From the NCBI GenBank assembly GCA_964471165.1, contig CAYYEX010000001.1, positions 65,037 to 129,036 on the forward strand: DNA of 64,000 bases, written 5' to 3'. Positions 4,834 to 53,393 of the stretch are shown piece by piece. A program made the translations under genes and the position numbers. The stretch's first letter is position 1, and each line of letters starts with the position of its first letter. The DNA is from an uncultured Candidatus Saccharibacteria bacterium (GTDB lineage: Bacteria; Patescibacteriota; Minisyncoccia; Phycocordibacterales; UBA2100). The notes beneath the pieces were generated by a model. That model did not search any database and was not told where the DNA came from. It saw nothing but the letters and a program-made list of their open reading frames with translations.

Positions 4834-5208
4834 ATGAAAACAAATCCAAAGACACTACAACGCATTTACACCATGAGCTTTGCGCGAGTTTATCCCCTCT
4901 ACGTGGCAAAGGCGGAGAAAAAAGGACGCACGAAGGCGGAAGTCGACGAGGTAATCCGTTGGCTAACCGGATATCGCGAAAAAGGCTTGCAAACACAATT
5001 GAAAAAGCAGACGGACTTCGAAACATTCTTTGCCAAAGCTCCAAAGCTCAACCCAAAGCGGCGACTCATCACCGGTTTGATTTGCGGTATCCGCGTGGAA
5101 GACATTAAGGAGCCCCTCATGCAAGAAATCCGCTATCTCGATAAACTTGTCGATGAATTAGCAAAAGGAAAAGCGATGGAGCAGATTCTGCGTAAAAAAG
5201 ACCCTTAG
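4834..5208 (+). CDS. DUF2200 family protein (124 aa)
   Basis: [47 protein letters not shown] matches the conserved N-terminus of DUF2200 proteins. The upstream part of the long six-frame ORF (4459..) is antisense to the NUDIX gene, so the start was moved to the ATG at 4834. Confidence 0.65.
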
Positions 5209-5798
5209 CGCAAAGCGGCAAAGCGGCGTCGTTCTCGCTCGAAGTCCGGGCGAACTTCGTCTTGAACCTCCGGAAAAAATATCTTTTTATTGAAATCCCT
5301 ATCTGTCTTCTCCAGTCCCCATTTCAAAATATCGGCCTTTGTCTCTCCTCGTGCTGTAAAGTTCTCCACCGCAAAATCATAAAAATCTGTTTGCAGGTGA
5401 ACTACCGCATCTGCAGTTGCCATTATCTTCCCCTCGAGGGTTCGAGGTGCATCCCCATCCCTGCAGCTGTGATATTTGATTGCATCGTCAACGATGAGCG
5501 TAATCTCTGCATCGGTAAATCCCGATAGTCGCAAAAGGCCCCGTGCAATGGCCATACTCTCCTGTTCGTGCCGCGGGTCTTCTCGCGACATAACGGCGTC
5601 GGCTACGTCGTGCAACATTGCCGCTGCTACTACCAAATCCACGCCCGCACCAAACCGCACGGCCAATTCCCTCGCCTTATCAGCCACCTTAAACACATGG
5701 CTCGTGTGCAAATAATCTGCCCAGTCTTTTGCTCGGCTCGTGTTCTTGTCTAGATACAAGGCATCAATCCGATCTTTAAGTGCCTCGATTCGATTCAT
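5205..5798 (-). CDS. HD-domain phosphohydrolase
   Basis: H...HD motif ([10 protein letters not shown]) and a downstream conserved D (ATADAVVH). Typical HD superfamily layout. Confidence 0.7.
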
Positions 5799-6211
5799 AC
5801 TTGGGGTAACCGCAGATACCTCTGATAAATCACACCAGTGTCCGTGCAGAGTTTGCCCTCCGTATACAACTGGTCAACTTCCTCTTTTTTCATCCACCCC
5901 GACCATTGCCATTCCGTCTCGTCTGTCTGCAGCGTGTCATCAGTCTCTGTAATATATGCATGCGACGTTTGTTGAAAATTCGGCATATCAAAGTCTTCTG
6001 TAAACAAGTACCGTATGGGTGTTTTTAAACCAGTCTCCTCAAACAATTCCCTTGCAGCAGCCTCTTGAGGCAGTTCCCCTTCGTCCACATGCCCGCCCGC
6101 ACCAATACCATATCTATTCGGAAACATTTTTTTAGATGCCAAACGCTGATGCATAAAATACTCACCCTGGGAGTTTTTTATAAAAATGATGACTACTTCG
6201 ACTTTGGCCAT
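5795..6211 (-). CDS. NUDIX hydrolase
   Basis: Nudix box GGHVDEGELPQEAAARELFEETG. Overlaps the HD gene by 4 nt, suggesting an operon. Confidence 0.8.
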   Translation of the reverse strand: MAKVEVVIIFIKNSQGEYFMHQRLASKKMFPNRYGIGAGGHVDEGELPQEAAARELFEETGLKTPIRYLFTEDFDMPNFQQTSHAYITETDDTLQTDETEWQWSGWMKKEEVDQLYTEGKLCTDTGVIYQRYLRLPQV

Positions 6212-16300: not shown

Positions 16301-16317
16301 CTGGGGGACTTGGAATC
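16301..16317 (-). repeat. 17-nt exact copy of tRNA-Gln 3' end (GATTCCAAGTCCCCCAG), 182 nt downstream of the tRNA
   Basis: ctgggggacttggaatc at 16301-16317 equals 16499-16515. A second degenerate copy ...cttgtcccccag lies at ~16330-16345. Confidence 0.85.
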
Positions 16318-16498
16318 CCCATCGACTCATAATATCAGCCGTCGCTTCTGGGGGACAAGGAGCGCTCGCATGAGCTCGCTTTTTGAGAACCCACGGTTCT
16401 CAACGTGTCTTCGCACTGCTCTCCTCCACGGGAAACTACCGTTTCCCGCCCCCTTCACTTCCAAGTCCCGCAGGACTCGTTCATTTCATTCTCTCGTG

Positions 16499-32398: not shown

Positions 32399-32404
32399 CA
32401 AAAA

Positions 32405-32440
32405 TACAAAAGACGGGACATTGTCCCGTCTTTTGTATTT
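32405..32440 (+). terminator. Rho-independent terminator after tRNA-Leu(CAA)
   Basis: AAAAGACGGGAC-attg-GTCCCGTCTTTTGTATTTT. Confidence 0.7.
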
Positions 32441-32573
32441 TGTAGAGCGGGGTGGAACGAGAAAGTGAGGACTGGGGCCCCGCGAGTACGCGGGGATGTC
32501 CGAGCAGGGCCGAGCGGAGAAAAGTTCTGACGAGAACTTTTCGAGCGCTTGGCCGAGTCCCTCCTCCGGCACA
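32441..32573 (+). repeat. ~130-nt tRNA-Leu-associated structured element ending in a 20-nt exact copy of the tRNA-Leu(CAA) 3' end
   Basis: Contains hairpins CCCCGCG-agta-CGCGGGG and GAAAAGTT-ctgacgag-AACTTTTC. Ends cgagtccctcctccggcaca, equal to the tRNA at 32381-32400. Homologous element at 53261..53393. Confidence 0.8.
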
Positions 32574-32575
32574 AA

Positions 32576-38013: not shown

Positions 38014-38057
38014 AAAACTCCCCGCATGGCGCATCTTTCATTAGGGTGCGGGCGATG

Positions 38058-38073
38058 TAGGAAACTCTCTAGC
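38058..38073 (-). repeat. 16-nt exact copy of tRNA-Trp 3' end (gcgggcgatgtaggaa), ~150 nt downstream of the tRNA
   Basis: Identical to 38221-38236. An inverted degenerate copy (tcgattcctaca...atcgccca) lies at 38153-38195. Confidence 0.8.
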
Positions 38074-38218
38074 CTCTCAGTTCGCCGTCGCTCACTTCGG
38101 GCTGGGCACCGCCTCGCACCCGCGCGTGCTCGCGCGGGACCCGCTCCGGCGCTCGATTCCTACACGCACAGCGCCCCACGCTATGCTATCGCCCACCGTT
38201 TTCACTATGTTCAAACTT

Positions 38219-38292
38219 TTGCGGGCGATGTAGGAATCGAACCTACACTAGCGGTTTTGGAGACCGCTGTTCTACCACTAAACTAATCGCCC
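38219..38292 (-). tRNA. tRNA-Trp (anticodon CCA), CCA encoded
   Basis: Reverse complement GGGCGATTAGTTTAGTGGTAGAACAGCGGTCTCCAAAACCGCTAGTGTAGGTTCGATTCCTACATCGCCCGCCA. Anticodon loop CTCCAAA. Confidence 0.85.
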
Positions 38293-44899: not shown

Positions 44900-46396
44900 A
44901 TGTCAAAAGAAACCTCACATTCGCAAGAGCGTCCGCCCGTAGTGGTGGTCATGGGCCACGTCGACCATGGTAAGTCGACGCTTCTCGATTTCATTCGCAA
45001 AGCCAACGTTGTAGCCGGTGAAGCCGGTGGTATTACGCAGCATGTTGCAGCGTACGAGGTTGAACACAAAAAGAAGCGCATAACGTTTATCGACACCCCG
45101 GGACACGCAGCGTTTTCTGCTATTCGTGCCCGTGGCGCAAACGTGGCCGACATTGCAATTCTCGTAGTGGCAGCAGACGACGGCGTAAAGGCGCAGACAC
45201 TCGAGGCCCTCGAACAAATCCGCGAGAGCGGCATTCCGTTTATCGTTGCTATCAATAAAATCGACAAGCCCAACGCAGACATGTCTCGCACACAGGGCTC
45301 ACTCCTTGAAAAGGGCGTGTACTTGGAAAAGCTTGGTGGAGATGTGCCGTGGGCAGCTATTTCTGCAAAGGTGGGCACCGGCGTCGAGGAATTGCTCGAC
45401 CTCATTCTCATTGTTTCAGAGTTCGCTAACTTTAAGGCCGACGCGTCGCTGCCAGCGACCGGCTACGTGATAGAAGCACATCGCGACCAAAAGCGCGGCA
45501 TCGCTGCCACGCTTATTGTGACCGAGGGCACGCTTGAAAGCGGCATGGCCGTTGTGGCGGGTGGCGCAATTGCGCCGGTGCGCATTATGGAAAATCATCT
45601 CGGCAAGCAAATCAAGAGCGCGACATTCTCTACCCCAATCGCGCTCGTGGGATTCGACGAACTCCCTGCTGTGGGTGAGCAATTCAAAACATACAAAAAC
45701 AAGAAAGAGGCTGAGGCAGCGCGACAAGTGACTCTCACAGAAACTCCAAAGCCTGCTGCAGAAGTGCGCGAAGAAGGCGGACAGAAATACTATATGTCGG
45801 TAATCGTGCGCGCCGACGCTGCCGGCTCGCTCGAAGCGATATTGTCGGAAATCTCTCGCCTCGGCGACGAACACTCCAAAATCACCATCGTGCAGAGTGG
45901 CATCGGCAACATTTCGGAGTCCGACATGAAAACTGCACTCGCCGGCTCGCAGAAAGCAATTGTGATCGGATTCAACGTAGGAATCGATGGTATTGCAGAA
46001 ACTATCGGCAACCAACAGAGCGTACGCGTGGAGAAGTTCAACATCATCTACAAACTGACCGAGTTCCTTGAGGAACTTTTGCAGAATTCACGTCCAAAGC
46101 GCACTGTTGAGGAAATCATTGGTAAGGCACGTGTGCTTCGTGTATTTTCGACCCGCAAGGCTGAGCACGTGGTGGGTGGCACGGTGTTTGAGGGATTCTT
46201 GGAAAAGAAGGGCGATATCCGCGTGATTCGCCGCAACGTAACGGTAATTGGTGAAGGCAAGCTCATCAACATGCAGGCGAGCAAGATAAATGTGGACCGT
46301 GTAGAAAAGGGCACCGAATTCGGTACACAGATTGAAGCTCCATTTGAAATTGCCGAGGGCGACATCTTGATGTGCTTCCGCCGCACCACCATATAA
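44900..46396 (+). CDS. infB: translation initiation factor IF-2 (short, 498 aa; N-terminal domains absent)
   Basis: G-domain GHVDHGKSTLLD, DTPGH, NKID. C-terminal beta-barrel domains present. Confidence 0.85.
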   Translation: MSKETSHSQERPPVVVVMGHVDHGKSTLLDFIRKANVVAGEAGGITQHVAAYEVEHKKKRITFIDTPGHAAFSAIRARGANVADIAILVVAADDGVKAQTLEALEQIRESGIPFIVAINKIDKPNADMSRTQGSLLEKGVYLEKLGGDVPWAAISAKVGTGVEELLDLILIVSEFANFKADASLPATGYVIEAHRDQKRGIAATLIVTEGTLESGMAVVAGGAIAPVRIMENHLGKQIKSATFSTPIALVGFDELPAVGEQFKTYKNKKEAEAARQVTLTETPKPAAEVREEGGQKYYMSVIVRADAAGSLEAILSEISRLGDEHSKITIVQSGIGNISESDMKTALAGSQKAIVIGFNVGIDGIAETIGNQQSVRVEKFNIIYKLTEFLEELLQNSRPKRTVEEIIGKARVLRVFSTRKAEHVVGGTVFEGFLEKKGDIRVIRRNVTVIGEGKLINMQASKINVDRVEKGTEFGTQIEAPFEIAEGDILMCFRRTTI

Positions 46397-46402
46397 ACCA
46401 CT

Positions 46403-46741
46403 ATGGCATCAAAGCGACAGATACAAATCTCTGAAGCATTCGCACACTTGGCAGCGGATTATTTTGCACGCGAATCAAATCGCCTTGCACTCATTACCGT
46501 GACCCGTGCGGATGTGTCTCCCGATCTCAAGAACGTAACAATTTATTTTTCGGTCTTACCGGAAACATACGAGGAGCAGGTTGTGCATTTTGCACGACGC
46601 AGCCGCACAGACTTCCGCCAATACATAAAAGACAAAGCAACCATGCGCGTGTTACCCAACGTGGATTTTGTGCTCGACTTAGGTGAGAAAAATCGCCAAC
46701 GAATTGACGATTTAACTCGAACTCCTCCGAAGCTCGACTAA
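46403..46741 (+). CDS. rbfA: ribosome-binding factor A
   Basis: KH-like RbfA pattern (ITVTRADVSPDLKNVTIYFSVL). Follows infB, the conserved infB-rbfA order. Confidence 0.8.
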   Translation: MASKRQIQISEAFAHLAADYFARESNRLALITVTRADVSPDLKNVTIYFSVLPETYEEQVVHFARRSRTDFRQYIKDKATMRVLPNVDFVLDLGEKNRQRIDDLTRTPPKLD

Positions 46742-46751
46742 CTAATTGAAT

Positions 46752-46814
46752 TTGAGGCCACAGCGGGAGTTGCACCCGCCCATAGCGCAATTCTACAAAC
46801 AGAGCAGACCGCCG
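46752..46814 (-). repeat. partial copy of the tRNA-Cys 3' half (36 nt identical plus cagaccgccg), ~95 nt downstream of the tRNA
   Basis: ttgaggccacagcgggagttgcacccgcccatagcg repeated at 46752-46787 and 46851-46886; cagaccgccg at 46805 and 46893. Confidence 0.85.
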
Positions 46815-46853
46815 TGCGGAATGGGATTGAGTTGAAGAATCTATATTTTTTTG

Positions 46854-46925
46854 AGGCCACAGCGGGAGTTGCACCCGCCCATAGCGGTTTTGCAGACCGC
46901 CGCGTTGCTACTTCGCCATATGGCC
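46854..46925 (-). tRNA. tRNA-Cys (anticodon GCA), unusual T-loop (G at position 55)
   Basis: Reverse complement GGCCATATGGCGAAGTAGCAACGCGGCGGTCTGCAAAACCGCTATGGGCGGGTGCAACTCCCGCTGTGGCCT. 7-bp acceptor with G-U, anticodon loop CTGCAAA, U73 discriminator typical of Cys. T-loop TGCAACT is atypical. Confidence 0.6.
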
Positions 46926-46978
46926 GAGGAAGTACGCCGTGTACTGTAACATAAATTGACGTTACTATGTGCCCCATT

Positions 46979-47063
46979 GCCGGGGTGATGGAATGGTAGA
47001 CATAGGGGACTTAAAATCCCCAGGCCGTAAAAGGCCGTGTGGGTTCGAGTCCCACTCCCGGCA
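46979..47063 (+). tRNA. tRNA-Leu (anticodon UAA), type II
   Basis: GCCGGGG.../...TCCCGGC acceptor, anticodon loop CTTAAAA, variable arm GGCCGTAAAAGGCCGT, T-arm GTGGGTTCGAGTCCCAC. Confidence 0.85.
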
Positions 47064-47072
47064 CAAAAAAGA

Positions 47073-47099
47073 GAGCGACTGCCAAAATGACAGTCGCTC
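47073..47099. terminator. hairpin GAGCGACTG-N9-CAGTCGCTC; has a U-tract only on the minus strand (terminates 47124..47393 gene)
   Basis: Minus-strand reading: GAGCGACTGtcattttggCAGTCGCTCTCTTTTTTGTG. Confidence 0.55.
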
Positions 47100-47123
47100 A
47101 AGTTCAAGGTTGCTCACATTGGC

Positions 47124-47393
47124 TCAGCACTTTTTTCTCCAGTTGCTGAACGCAGCGAGACCCAGTGTGAATCCAACGGCTGCCCCGACGAGCAGCAGCC
47201 AGCTCCCCATCCCATAGAGCGTAAACAGATTCTCCTCGGAACAGGGCCAGCCAGTCGCTTTCAGGATGCCGCACGTCGCTCGCTCGATGTAGTACATGTG
47301 GTTTCTCCATATATCAAAGAGCCGTATCGCAACAGCGACACGGCTCAGGGGTTGGTTGATATGTACCTGACGAAGGAATAGACATACATCCAC
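47124..47393 (-). CDS. hypothetical small protein with C-terminal TM helix (89 aa)
   Basis: ORF followed by a good terminator. Composition moderate. Confidence 0.25.
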   Translation of the reverse strand: MDVCLFLRQVHINQPLSRVAVAIRLFDIWRNHMYYIERATCGILKATGWPCSEENLFTLYGMGSWLLLVGAAVGFTLGLAAFSNWRKKC

Positions 47394-49176: not shown

Positions 49177-49190
49177 CAAAGACGAAACAA

Positions 49191-49214
49191 ACCTGGCCTG
49201 CGCCAGGTTTTTTC
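49191..49214 (+). terminator. Rho-independent terminator after tRNA-Lys
   Basis: AACCTGGC-ctgc-GCCAGGTTTTTT. Confidence 0.7.
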
Positions 49215-49343
49215 GCTTTGTGCGGGCCGGAGCCATGTCGCAAAAGCTTTTGCGACGGGCGAGGCAGGGTCGTGGAATTTTCCGAGCGGCGGCGAGGAAA
49301 ATATCCCTGACCACATGTGGCCCTACACCGGCGAGACGAGGGA

Positions 49344-49354
49344 GAATCCTGGTG
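49344..49354 (+). repeat. 11-nt copy of tRNA-Lys T-arm/acceptor junction (gaatcctggtg) 176 nt downstream of the tRNA
   Basis: Identical to 49161-49171. Weaker than at other tRNAs but at the same characteristic distance. Confidence 0.4.
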
Positions 49355-53216: not shown

Positions 53217-53260
53217 CAAAAATCATTAGAGCCAGGGCATGACCTGGCTCTAATGATTTT
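53217..53260 (+). terminator. long hairpin terminator after tRNA-Leu(UAG)
   Basis: AAAAATCATTAGAGCCAGG-gcatga-CCTGGCTCTAATGATTTT. Confidence 0.75.
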
Positions 53261-53393
53261 CGGGAGGTGGATGAGACGAGAAGGCGAAGGCTGGGGACCC
53301 CGCGAGCACGCGGGGATGCCTGAGCGTAGTCAGGCGGAGAAAAGTTTTGACGAAAACTTTTCGAGCGCTTGACCGAGTCTCCCTCCGCCCACA
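53261..53393 (+). repeat. ~130-nt tRNA-Leu-associated structured element (homolog of 32441..32573) ending in an 18/21 copy of the tRNA-Leu(UAG) 3' end
   Basis: CCCCGCG-agca-CGCGGGG and GAAAAGTTTT-gacg-AAAACTTTTC hairpins. Ends cgagtctccctccgcccaca. Closing stem GGCGGAG...CTCCGCC possible. Confidence 0.8.

Follow-up and report, generated by a model that had tools for sequence, protein, structure and literature searches.

The window, by which we mean the whole 64,000-nt stretch of DNA analysed here, contains eight tRNA genes according to ARAGORN. One of them is a tRNA-Cys gene on the minus strand, accompanied by an incomplete copy of itself, and the locus comprises the following features.

46403-46741, plus strand: rbfA, convergent with the tRNA-Cys unit (Pfam PF02033, RBFA, 55 bits)
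46751-46814, minus strand: pseudo-tRNA-Cys fragment, termed P3', recognised from its repeats and from homologues at loci L007, L050, and L054
46815-46849, minus strand: AT-rich 35-nt spacer from the tRNA trailer to the pseudo-copy, read from the sequence
46850-46886, minus strand: copy 1 of the direct repeat, tRNA positions 41-73 plus four trailing nucleotides (CAAA), an exact repeat with 100% identity
46854-46925, minus strand: tRNA-Cys(GCA), predicted to be functional from ARAGORN, Rfam, and syntenic orthologues with compensatory stem changes
46892-46902, minus strand: second repeat block within the tRNA, positions 25-35 (anticodon-stem 5' strand and CUGC), an exact repeat
46979-47064, plus strand: tRNA-Leu(UAA), the divergent partner of tRNA-Cys (tRNA call)

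The tRNA-Cys gene was called by two programs. ARAGORN reported anticodon GCA at 46853-46925 on the minus strand, and Rfam matched the tRNA family RF00005 at 46854-46925 with 55.5 bits, well above the gathering score of 29, as for a canonical tRNA. In the tRNA sense, the gene reads GGCCAUA UG GCGA AGUAGCA ACGC G GCGGU CUGCAAA ACCGC UAUGG GCGGG UGCAACU CCCGC UGUGGCC U, with the acceptor stem GGCCAUA/UGUGGCC, the discriminator U73, the D loop AGUAGCA (A18 G19), and the T loop UGCAACU (G55). The original prediction had recognised a tRNA-Cys with a good acceptor stem, U73, and an atypical T loop TGCAACT with G at position 55, and each of these readings was confirmed in the sequence and in the Rfam alignment. 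In E. coli, the determinants of tRNA-Cys are U73, the GCA anticodon, G15:G48, and A13.A22, a set typical of bacterial tRNA-Cys. All of them (U73, GCA, G15/G48, and A13.A22) are present in the tRNA-Cys of the window, as seen in the sequence and the Rfam alignment. The gene departs from the near-invariant elbow formed by U54-U55(psi)-C56 and G18-G19; the other tRNAs of the window all have GGUUCGA, to which tRNA-Cys is the exception. An alternative tRNA-Cys gene, which would have spoken against the earlier call, is absent from the eight tRNA genes that ARAGORN found in the window.

Like tRNA-Cys, none of the eight tRNA genes encodes a 3' CCA. Several of them are followed, 1-5 nt 3' of the gene, by a long perfect hairpin flanked by A/T runs, which resembles a bidirectional terminator.

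Relatives identified by IF2 and ClpB place the window, which lies on a 308-kb metagenome contig, in Candidatus Kaiserbacteria (Paceibacteria, CPR). We collected about 24 distinct loci with an orthologous tRNA-Cys, labelled L0xx, from an IF2 genome scan (L004-L011), a metagenome scan with the T arm (L019-L063), and ClpB homologues (L068-L074). The 19-nt T-arm pattern gave 48 matches in metagenomes, mostly unrelated GC-rich hairpins. IF2 identity to the window ranges from 93-94% in L004-L006 through 62% in L009 to 49% in L011. The IF2 of the window itself (44900-46396) has only 498 amino acids: a long N-terminal region is missing, leaving the GTPase, domain II, and IF-2 domains, and this short form is kept in relatives (486-528 amino acids).

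The ancestral order at the locus is rbfA, tRNA-Cys, and tRNA-Leu(UAA) on a single strand. The Cys/Leu(UAA) pair is divergent in the subgroup of the window, inverted in L006, L007, L071, and L072, and tandem in L009, L011, L019, L020, and L054. The orientation of the pair with respect to rbfA has switched on more than one occasion, and the locus counts as a hot spot of rearrangement. In L068, a free-standing gene of LAGLIDADG type (5106-5828, a weak Pfam match) lies between rbfA and tRNA-Cys.

The synteny of rbfA, tRNA-Cys, and tRNA-Leu(UAA) was accompanied by paired changes in three stems. Because 18 orthologues carry such changes in the acceptor, anticodon, and T stems, the gene is under selection as a tRNA, and on this comparative evidence we regard the live tRNA-Cys as a genuine and functional gene.

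The original prediction had also asked whether G55 is conserved in related genomes. It is present in 16 of the 18 distinct orthologous tRNA-Cys sequences, 15 of which combine the D loop AGUAGCA with the T loop UGCAACU. The tRNA-Cys of L068 has the D loop AGAAGUAA together with the T loop UGCGAAU, and the two most distant genes, those of L011 and L074, pair a GG-containing D loop with the canonical UUCGAKU. Thus, across the 18 sequences, G55 occurs only with a D loop lacking GG, and U55 only with GG. The constant company of G55 and an A at the G18 position indicates covariation of the elbow contact. We conclude that G55 is a fixed trait of the clade, with the G18 to A change in the D loop as its probable compensation.

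The same T loop is found in the tRNA-like structure of tymoviruses (RF00233). The T arm of tRNA-Cys (GGGUGCAACUCCC) matches the consensus of that family down to the UGCAACU loop, whose G occupies the psi55 position. RF00233 is a viral 3' UTR element, whereas here the loop occurs in a cellular tRNA-Cys with a matching G18 to A change, and the RF00233 scores at this locus are far below the threshold (13 bits against 40).

Downstream of the live gene lies P3', which consists of three parts. The first is a copy of positions 25-35 (46804-46814), the second is a stretch of 16 unrelated nucleotides, UCUGUUUGUAGAAUUG, that substitutes for positions 36-40 (46788-46803), and the third is a copy of positions 41-73 followed by CAAA (46751-46787). 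A repeat search showed that the third part forms an exact 37-nt direct repeat with the live gene (46751-46787 and 46850-46886) at a spacing of 99 nt, leaving a gap of 62 nt between the two repeats. The 37-mer, searched with up to three mismatches, gave two matches in the window and none in 100 shuffles. The first part is an exact 11-nt repeat, GCAGACCGCCG (46804-46814 and 46892-46902). The original prediction had described an exact 36-nt copy of the variable loop, T arm, and acceptor 3' strand about 95 nt downstream of the gene; the exactness, the extent over these elements, and the downstream position are correct, while the length is 37 nt and the spacing 99 nt. Its further observations hold as they were made: the copy is followed again by the anticodon-stem fragment, it is the longest tRNA-end duplication of the window (37 nt against 11-25 nt at other tRNAs), and it sits directly after the rbfA stop codon, the end of rbfA being 9 nt from the copy.

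In P3', the acceptor 5' strand and the D arm are missing and the anticodon loop has been destroyed. The fragment was called as a tRNA neither by ARAGORN nor by Rfam at E<=10 on a 291-nt region, where its sole trace was the T arm with 13 bits to RF00233. No terminator hairpin was found in the 46815-46849 spacer by a terminator scan, and no promoter in 46300-47300 by a promoter scan. No integrase was seen within 10 kb on either side of tRNA-Cys in the Pfam table.

The duplication comes from a metagenome contig, and short-read contigs of other runs break inside the repeat, as might be seen if assembly had produced it. Yet the 37-nt repeat is shorter than the assembler k-mer, the rbfA-fragment junction is present in two independent Logan short-read assemblies (both contigs breaking inside the repeat), and orthologous fragments occur in unrelated studies (L050, L054, and L007). 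The chance of an assembly artefact is accordingly negligible.

Among the approximately 24 G55-type loci, we found ten fragments of one architecture, which always immediately adjoin a live tRNA-Cys. Fragments of the 3' type lie downstream of the gene in the window, L007, L050, and L054, the last having two identical 91-nt tandem units. Fragments of the 5' type lie upstream in L008, L009, L029, L050, L072, and L073, and contain positions 1-35, the replacement, and positions 41 to about 55, followed by 22-32 unrelated nucleotides. In all ten, the replacement is bounded at 35/36 and 40/41, with CUGC preceding and CGYUA following it. The replacements, 14-17 nt long and AT-rich, are visibly related and mostly end in UUGG or UUG. 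The tRNA similarity begins at positions 24-25 in all four 3'-type fragments, and the spacing between gene and fragment is always 22-58 nt. The copy number varies from 0 to 2 per locus, and neither the closest relatives, L004, L005, and L006, nor many others have a fragment.

The fragments of the window and L050 were compared as orthologues, since both abut the rbfA 3' end. Their live genes are identical at 71 of 72 positions, whereas the spacers are 51% and the replacements 47% identical. In each of the two genomes, the tRNA-like blocks of the fragment are identical to the resident gene; a G-to-A change private to L050 (CACUA) occurs in its gene and again in its fragment, and the A28/U42 variants of the L007 and L054 genes are likewise mirrored in their own fragments. 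Erosion was also observed: the L050 fragment has lost 4-5 nt of the T arm, and the T arm and acceptor 3' strand of the L007 fragment have diverged. Minimum free energy folds of the four 3'-type fragments revealed no shared structure beyond the T arm. The fragments therefore have the characters of pseudogenes in concerted evolution: they are adjacent to the gene, in the same orientation, and not viable as tRNAs; their tRNA-like blocks track the neighbouring gene while the rest diverges; and they decay or are lost in some lineages.

On these grounds, with a probability of roughly 0.65, we interpret 46751-46814 as a truncated pseudo-copy of the live tRNA-Cys, a recombination scar with no function of its own. 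The lack of function is inferred here, as is the role of gene conversion as the homogenising process. At the start there would have been an old pseudo-tRNA-Cys paralogue, present early in Kaiserbacteria, in which positions 1-35 and 41-73 flanked a 14-17-nt replacement of the 3' half of the anticodon loop. This paralogue would then have undergone unequal crossing-over and gene conversion with the live gene, only a few tens of nucleotides away. Such exchanges would account for blocks identical to the neighbouring gene, for a copy number of 0-2, for fragments on either side, and for clean loss. Recombination between the 37-nt repeats would restore a single gene, giving the clean loss of L004-L006, and could also yield an amplification like that in L054. 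The first copy may go back to a local tandem duplication or to an element that, on integrating at the anticodon loop, displaced part of the tDNA.

Three observations weigh against a simple scar. The architecture is kept across divergence down to 62% IF2 identity (L009), where a neutral relic would be expected to decay, and this persistence may point to a constraint or to a recurrent generating mechanism. The same boundaries and the same replacement occur upstream and downstream, which is hard to obtain by simple tandem duplication. Finally, promoter-like hexamers in the 5'-type fragments hint at co-option.

The second route to the first copy deserves consideration in its own right. P3' may be the displaced 3' tDNA fragment (attR) left by an element that integrated into the anticodon loop, the gene having been restored by the element's own copy and the body of the element later deleted down to about 60 nt. 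We consider this origin possible, though we hold it only tentatively, and it is partly compatible with the recombination scar because it concerns origin. Sublocation classes of integration sites in tRNA genes were reportedly distinguished by Williams in 2002. A 3' fragment downstream of the gene in the same orientation, 5' fragments upstream in relatives, and centring on the anticodon together make up the classic island signature; P3' comes from one end of the tDNA, shares its orientation, and lies on the side expected. The similarity starts at 24-25, the expected beginning of a core site in the anticodon stem, the repeat extends 3-4 nt past the discriminator, and integrating elements demonstrably occupy tRNA 3' ends in this clade (at tRNA-Trp in L070, with recombinases at tRNA-Lys in L004 and tRNA-Tyr in L027).

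In the Islander database, 3' fragments accompany 3760 islands, 5' fragments accompany 159, and 2083 islands have anticodon-centred attP sites (PMC4383910); its authors stated that only tyrosine recombinases were known to target tDNAs (PMC4383910). The displaced tDNAs described there (PMC4383910) resemble the Cys fragment: the downstream piece is a 3' fragment oriented like the gene, it begins close to the anticodon stem and stops at the discriminator or just beyond, and relatives have 5' fragments on the upstream side. The Cys locus differs in having neither an integrase nor an island: instead of an integrase and at least about 2 kb of island DNA, only 62 nt separate the repeats, relatives are alike in this, and none of the approximately 24 loci has an integrase or cargo between gene and fragment. 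It differs also in the interrupted identity to the tRNA end, since 14-17 nt (16 nt in the window) replace positions 36-40, the 3' half of the anticodon loop; such a replacement is unexpected in an attR, and the same one occurs in upstream and downstream fragments. Tandem identical copies (L054) and concerted evolution with the gene are further differences. Viral contigs gave no pseudo-site in two pattern scans apart from one chance match in a coding region, and a viral scan with the Cys T arm returned four matches, all unrelated hairpins and none a tRNA-Cys.

The recombination scar has counterparts among the prokaryotic partial tRNA genes and pseudogenes surveyed by van der Gulik et al. (2023, PMC9897764), which are also non-functional fragments beside a canonical gene, arise by recombination or integration, and can confuse annotation. 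The Cys fragment differs from these in that it is not miscalled by ARAGORN or Rfam and belongs to a clade-wide homologous family with a shared anticodon-loop replacement. Pseudo-tRNA fragments such as P3' are already known in general; the history of this one is unusually persistent and mobile.

The same persistence across deep divergence, together with the perfect T arms and 3' strands of the window and L054 copies, could instead be read as a sign of function at the RNA or DNA level, for instance as a tRNA-half-like RNA, a trailer processing or decoy signal, a spare attB, or an upstream promoter cassette. The copy is probably co-transcribed with the tRNA, no terminator being apparent between them, and promoter-like hexamers can be read in the 5'-type fragments. 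Against such a function, the fragment is missing in the closest relatives and decaying in L007 and L050, and its copy number and side vary. The four 3'-type fragments have no common fold but the T arm, orthologous copies share about 50% identity in the replacement and spacer, and in the window only the convergent rbfA lies downstream. We judge a functional element to be improbable.

In the 5'-type fragments, a -35-like hexamer (TTGGCG or TTGCGY) was read by eye at the junction of the replacement and position 41. A -10-like TAnnnT (TAGAAT, TAAGGT, GATAAT, and TAAAGT) follows 15-17 nt after the junction and 11-15 nt before the live gene. From these motifs, the 5'-type fragment may have been co-opted as a sigma-70-like promoter of the live gene. 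The P3' of the window lacks the second hexamer.

Other tRNA genes of the window are followed by duplications of a different build, at the positions below.

16301-16497, minus strand: module, tRNA-end duplication
32400-32575, plus strand: module, tRNA-end duplication
38047-38220, minus strand: module, tRNA-end duplication
49178-49354, plus strand: degenerate module, tRNA-end duplication
53218-53392, plus strand: module, tRNA-end duplication

These modules of about 125-200 nt lie directly 3' of the genes for tRNA-Gln, three tRNA-Leu, tRNA-Trp, tRNA-Lys, tRNA-Tyr, and, in L072, tRNA-Cys; in relatives, they were found at L004, L006, L007, L010, L011, L020, L050, L054, and L068-L073. Each contains a direct copy of the tRNA 3' end, designated X, which runs from the T loop to the discriminator. 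Behind Gln, Leu-CAA, Trp, and Leu-TAG of the window, with a degenerate copy at Lys, X measures 17-25 nt, begins at T-loop positions 56-59, and lies 150-200 nt downstream. The copies in the window measure 17 nt for Gln, 22 nt for Leu-CAA, 17 nt for Trp, 25 nt with three mismatches for Leu-TAG, and 11 nt for the degenerate Lys. The order of elements is usually a terminator-like hairpin, then X', the reverse complement of X (sometimes split by a small hairpin), a two-hairpin core, and X. The core is marked by the motifs GGAUUCGAA, CGGAGCG, a GCGACGGC loop, and GAGCGCUUG.

X pairs with X' in all 21 elements of different tRNAs that were compared. The wobble count, intended to distinguish RNA from DNA, gave 290 Watson-Crick, 7 G.U, and 3 A.C pairs. 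RNAalifold on 14 module elements predicted 22 pairs, 19 of them with compensatory changes. In the Leu-TAG module of the window, X departs from the tRNA at three nucleotides, where X' agrees with X and not with the tRNA. With a profile of the core, 36 copies were detected in 370 kb containing 117 tRNA genes; for 31 of the copies, the start lies 11-122 nt downstream of a same-strand tRNA, and the rest lie mostly at locus edges. The architecture of the Trp module is kept between the window and L011, with IF2 49% identical. Rfam gave no family for the modules or for P3' in a scan of the whole window at the gathering threshold and at E<=5.

Since P3' occupies the same place downstream of a tRNA and ends at the discriminator, and a bona fide module does follow tRNA-Cys in L072, it might be regarded as a degenerate member of this X'-core-X family. 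However, it has no inverted copy of the 3' end and no match to the core profile, its repeat begins at position 41 rather than in the T loop, and 62 nt separate its repeats as against 120-190 nt. Membership is thus very improbable, and the modules are a different class from the Cys fragment.

We also considered the modules as guide RNAs in the style of TnpB omega-RNA or Cas12k, with a scaffold and a 17-22-nt guide matching the tRNA, and rejected the idea because the supposed guide is paired upstream in 21 of 21 elements; no nuclease gene for it was found in the annotated part of the window. The modules may be cassettes of miniature integrative elements, serving as folded attachment sites or as origins, or they may be tRNA-like RNAs.

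For the former, the folded single-strand attP of CTX-type phages, with miniphage- or CIME-like non-autonomous elements, offers a parallel; their target is dif. The candidate comparison is one of layout: a target copy, a short segment, an inverted copy, a structured loop of about 100 nt, and a target copy. An element with a gene for a filamentous-phage-type Rep, that of L070, also occurs together with modules. The modules differ from the CTX-type attP in targeting the tRNA 3' end instead of dif, in that the recombinase/Rep segment of L070 appears nested between the tRNA and a complete module, and in that the Trp module stays at the same position across deep divergence.

This element, of 6.6 kb, is integrated at the 3' end of tRNA-Trp in L070 (14095-20731 of ENA ERZ18667851 scaffold_12) and carries genes for a large serine recombinase and a Phage_CRI (filamentous-phage-type) Rep, the latter 24% identical to filamentous-phage Rep. 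A short repeat, GGGCCCGCAG/GGCCCGCCAG, borders the recombinase/Rep segment, with tRNA-Trp on one side of the segment and, on the other, a complete Trp-type module whose homologues occur in the window and L011. We had considered this module as the right end of the element, and dropped the assignment because the segment is repeat-bounded and nested beside a complete module; the relation of segment and module is nested or uncertain. Homologues of the serine recombinase adjoin tRNA-Lys in L004 (7150-8616) and tRNA-Tyr in L027 (9574-10881), and none was found in the window. The Rep had no match in viral contigs in a protein scan, and the element none among phages by blastn.

A broader interpretation would join the Cys fragment with the Gln, Leu-CAA, Trp, Lys, and Leu-TAG modules as products of one process in Kaiserbacteria that copies 3' portions of tRNAs beside their genes. 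We regard this unification as rather unlikely. It could take two forms. In the first, the copies would be miniature non-autonomous elements that enter tRNA 3' ends by way of a folded attachment site, in which X' pairs with X and mimics the target duplex, with elements that carry a serine recombinase and a rolling-circle Rep as helpers. In the second, they would be tRNA-like RNAs, whose closing helix corresponds to the acceptor/T-arm 3' strand of the upstream tRNA, with tRNA-like processing. A literature search on CPR tRNA-linked elements returned nothing specific. If the one-process interpretation were true, the copies would represent an undescribed class of tRNA-linked element, with the pseudo-tRNA-Cys as its anticodon-side variant.

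For annotation, the G55 tRNA-Cys should be accepted as genuine and as probably the sole cysteine tRNA of these reduced genomes, and its pseudo-tRNA fragment should be counted neither as a tRNA nor as evidence of a resident prophage. The clade-wide replacement of G18:psi55 by A18:G55 provides a natural example of elbow covariation, with the T loop that also occurs in tymovirus tRNA mimics. The conserved, structured module, absent from Rfam and present behind about one quarter of the sampled tRNA genes, merits a dedicated study. Taken with the fragments, the Cys/Leu inversions, and the recombinase/Rep elements, the tRNA 3' flanks of Kaiserbacteria are recombination hot spots.
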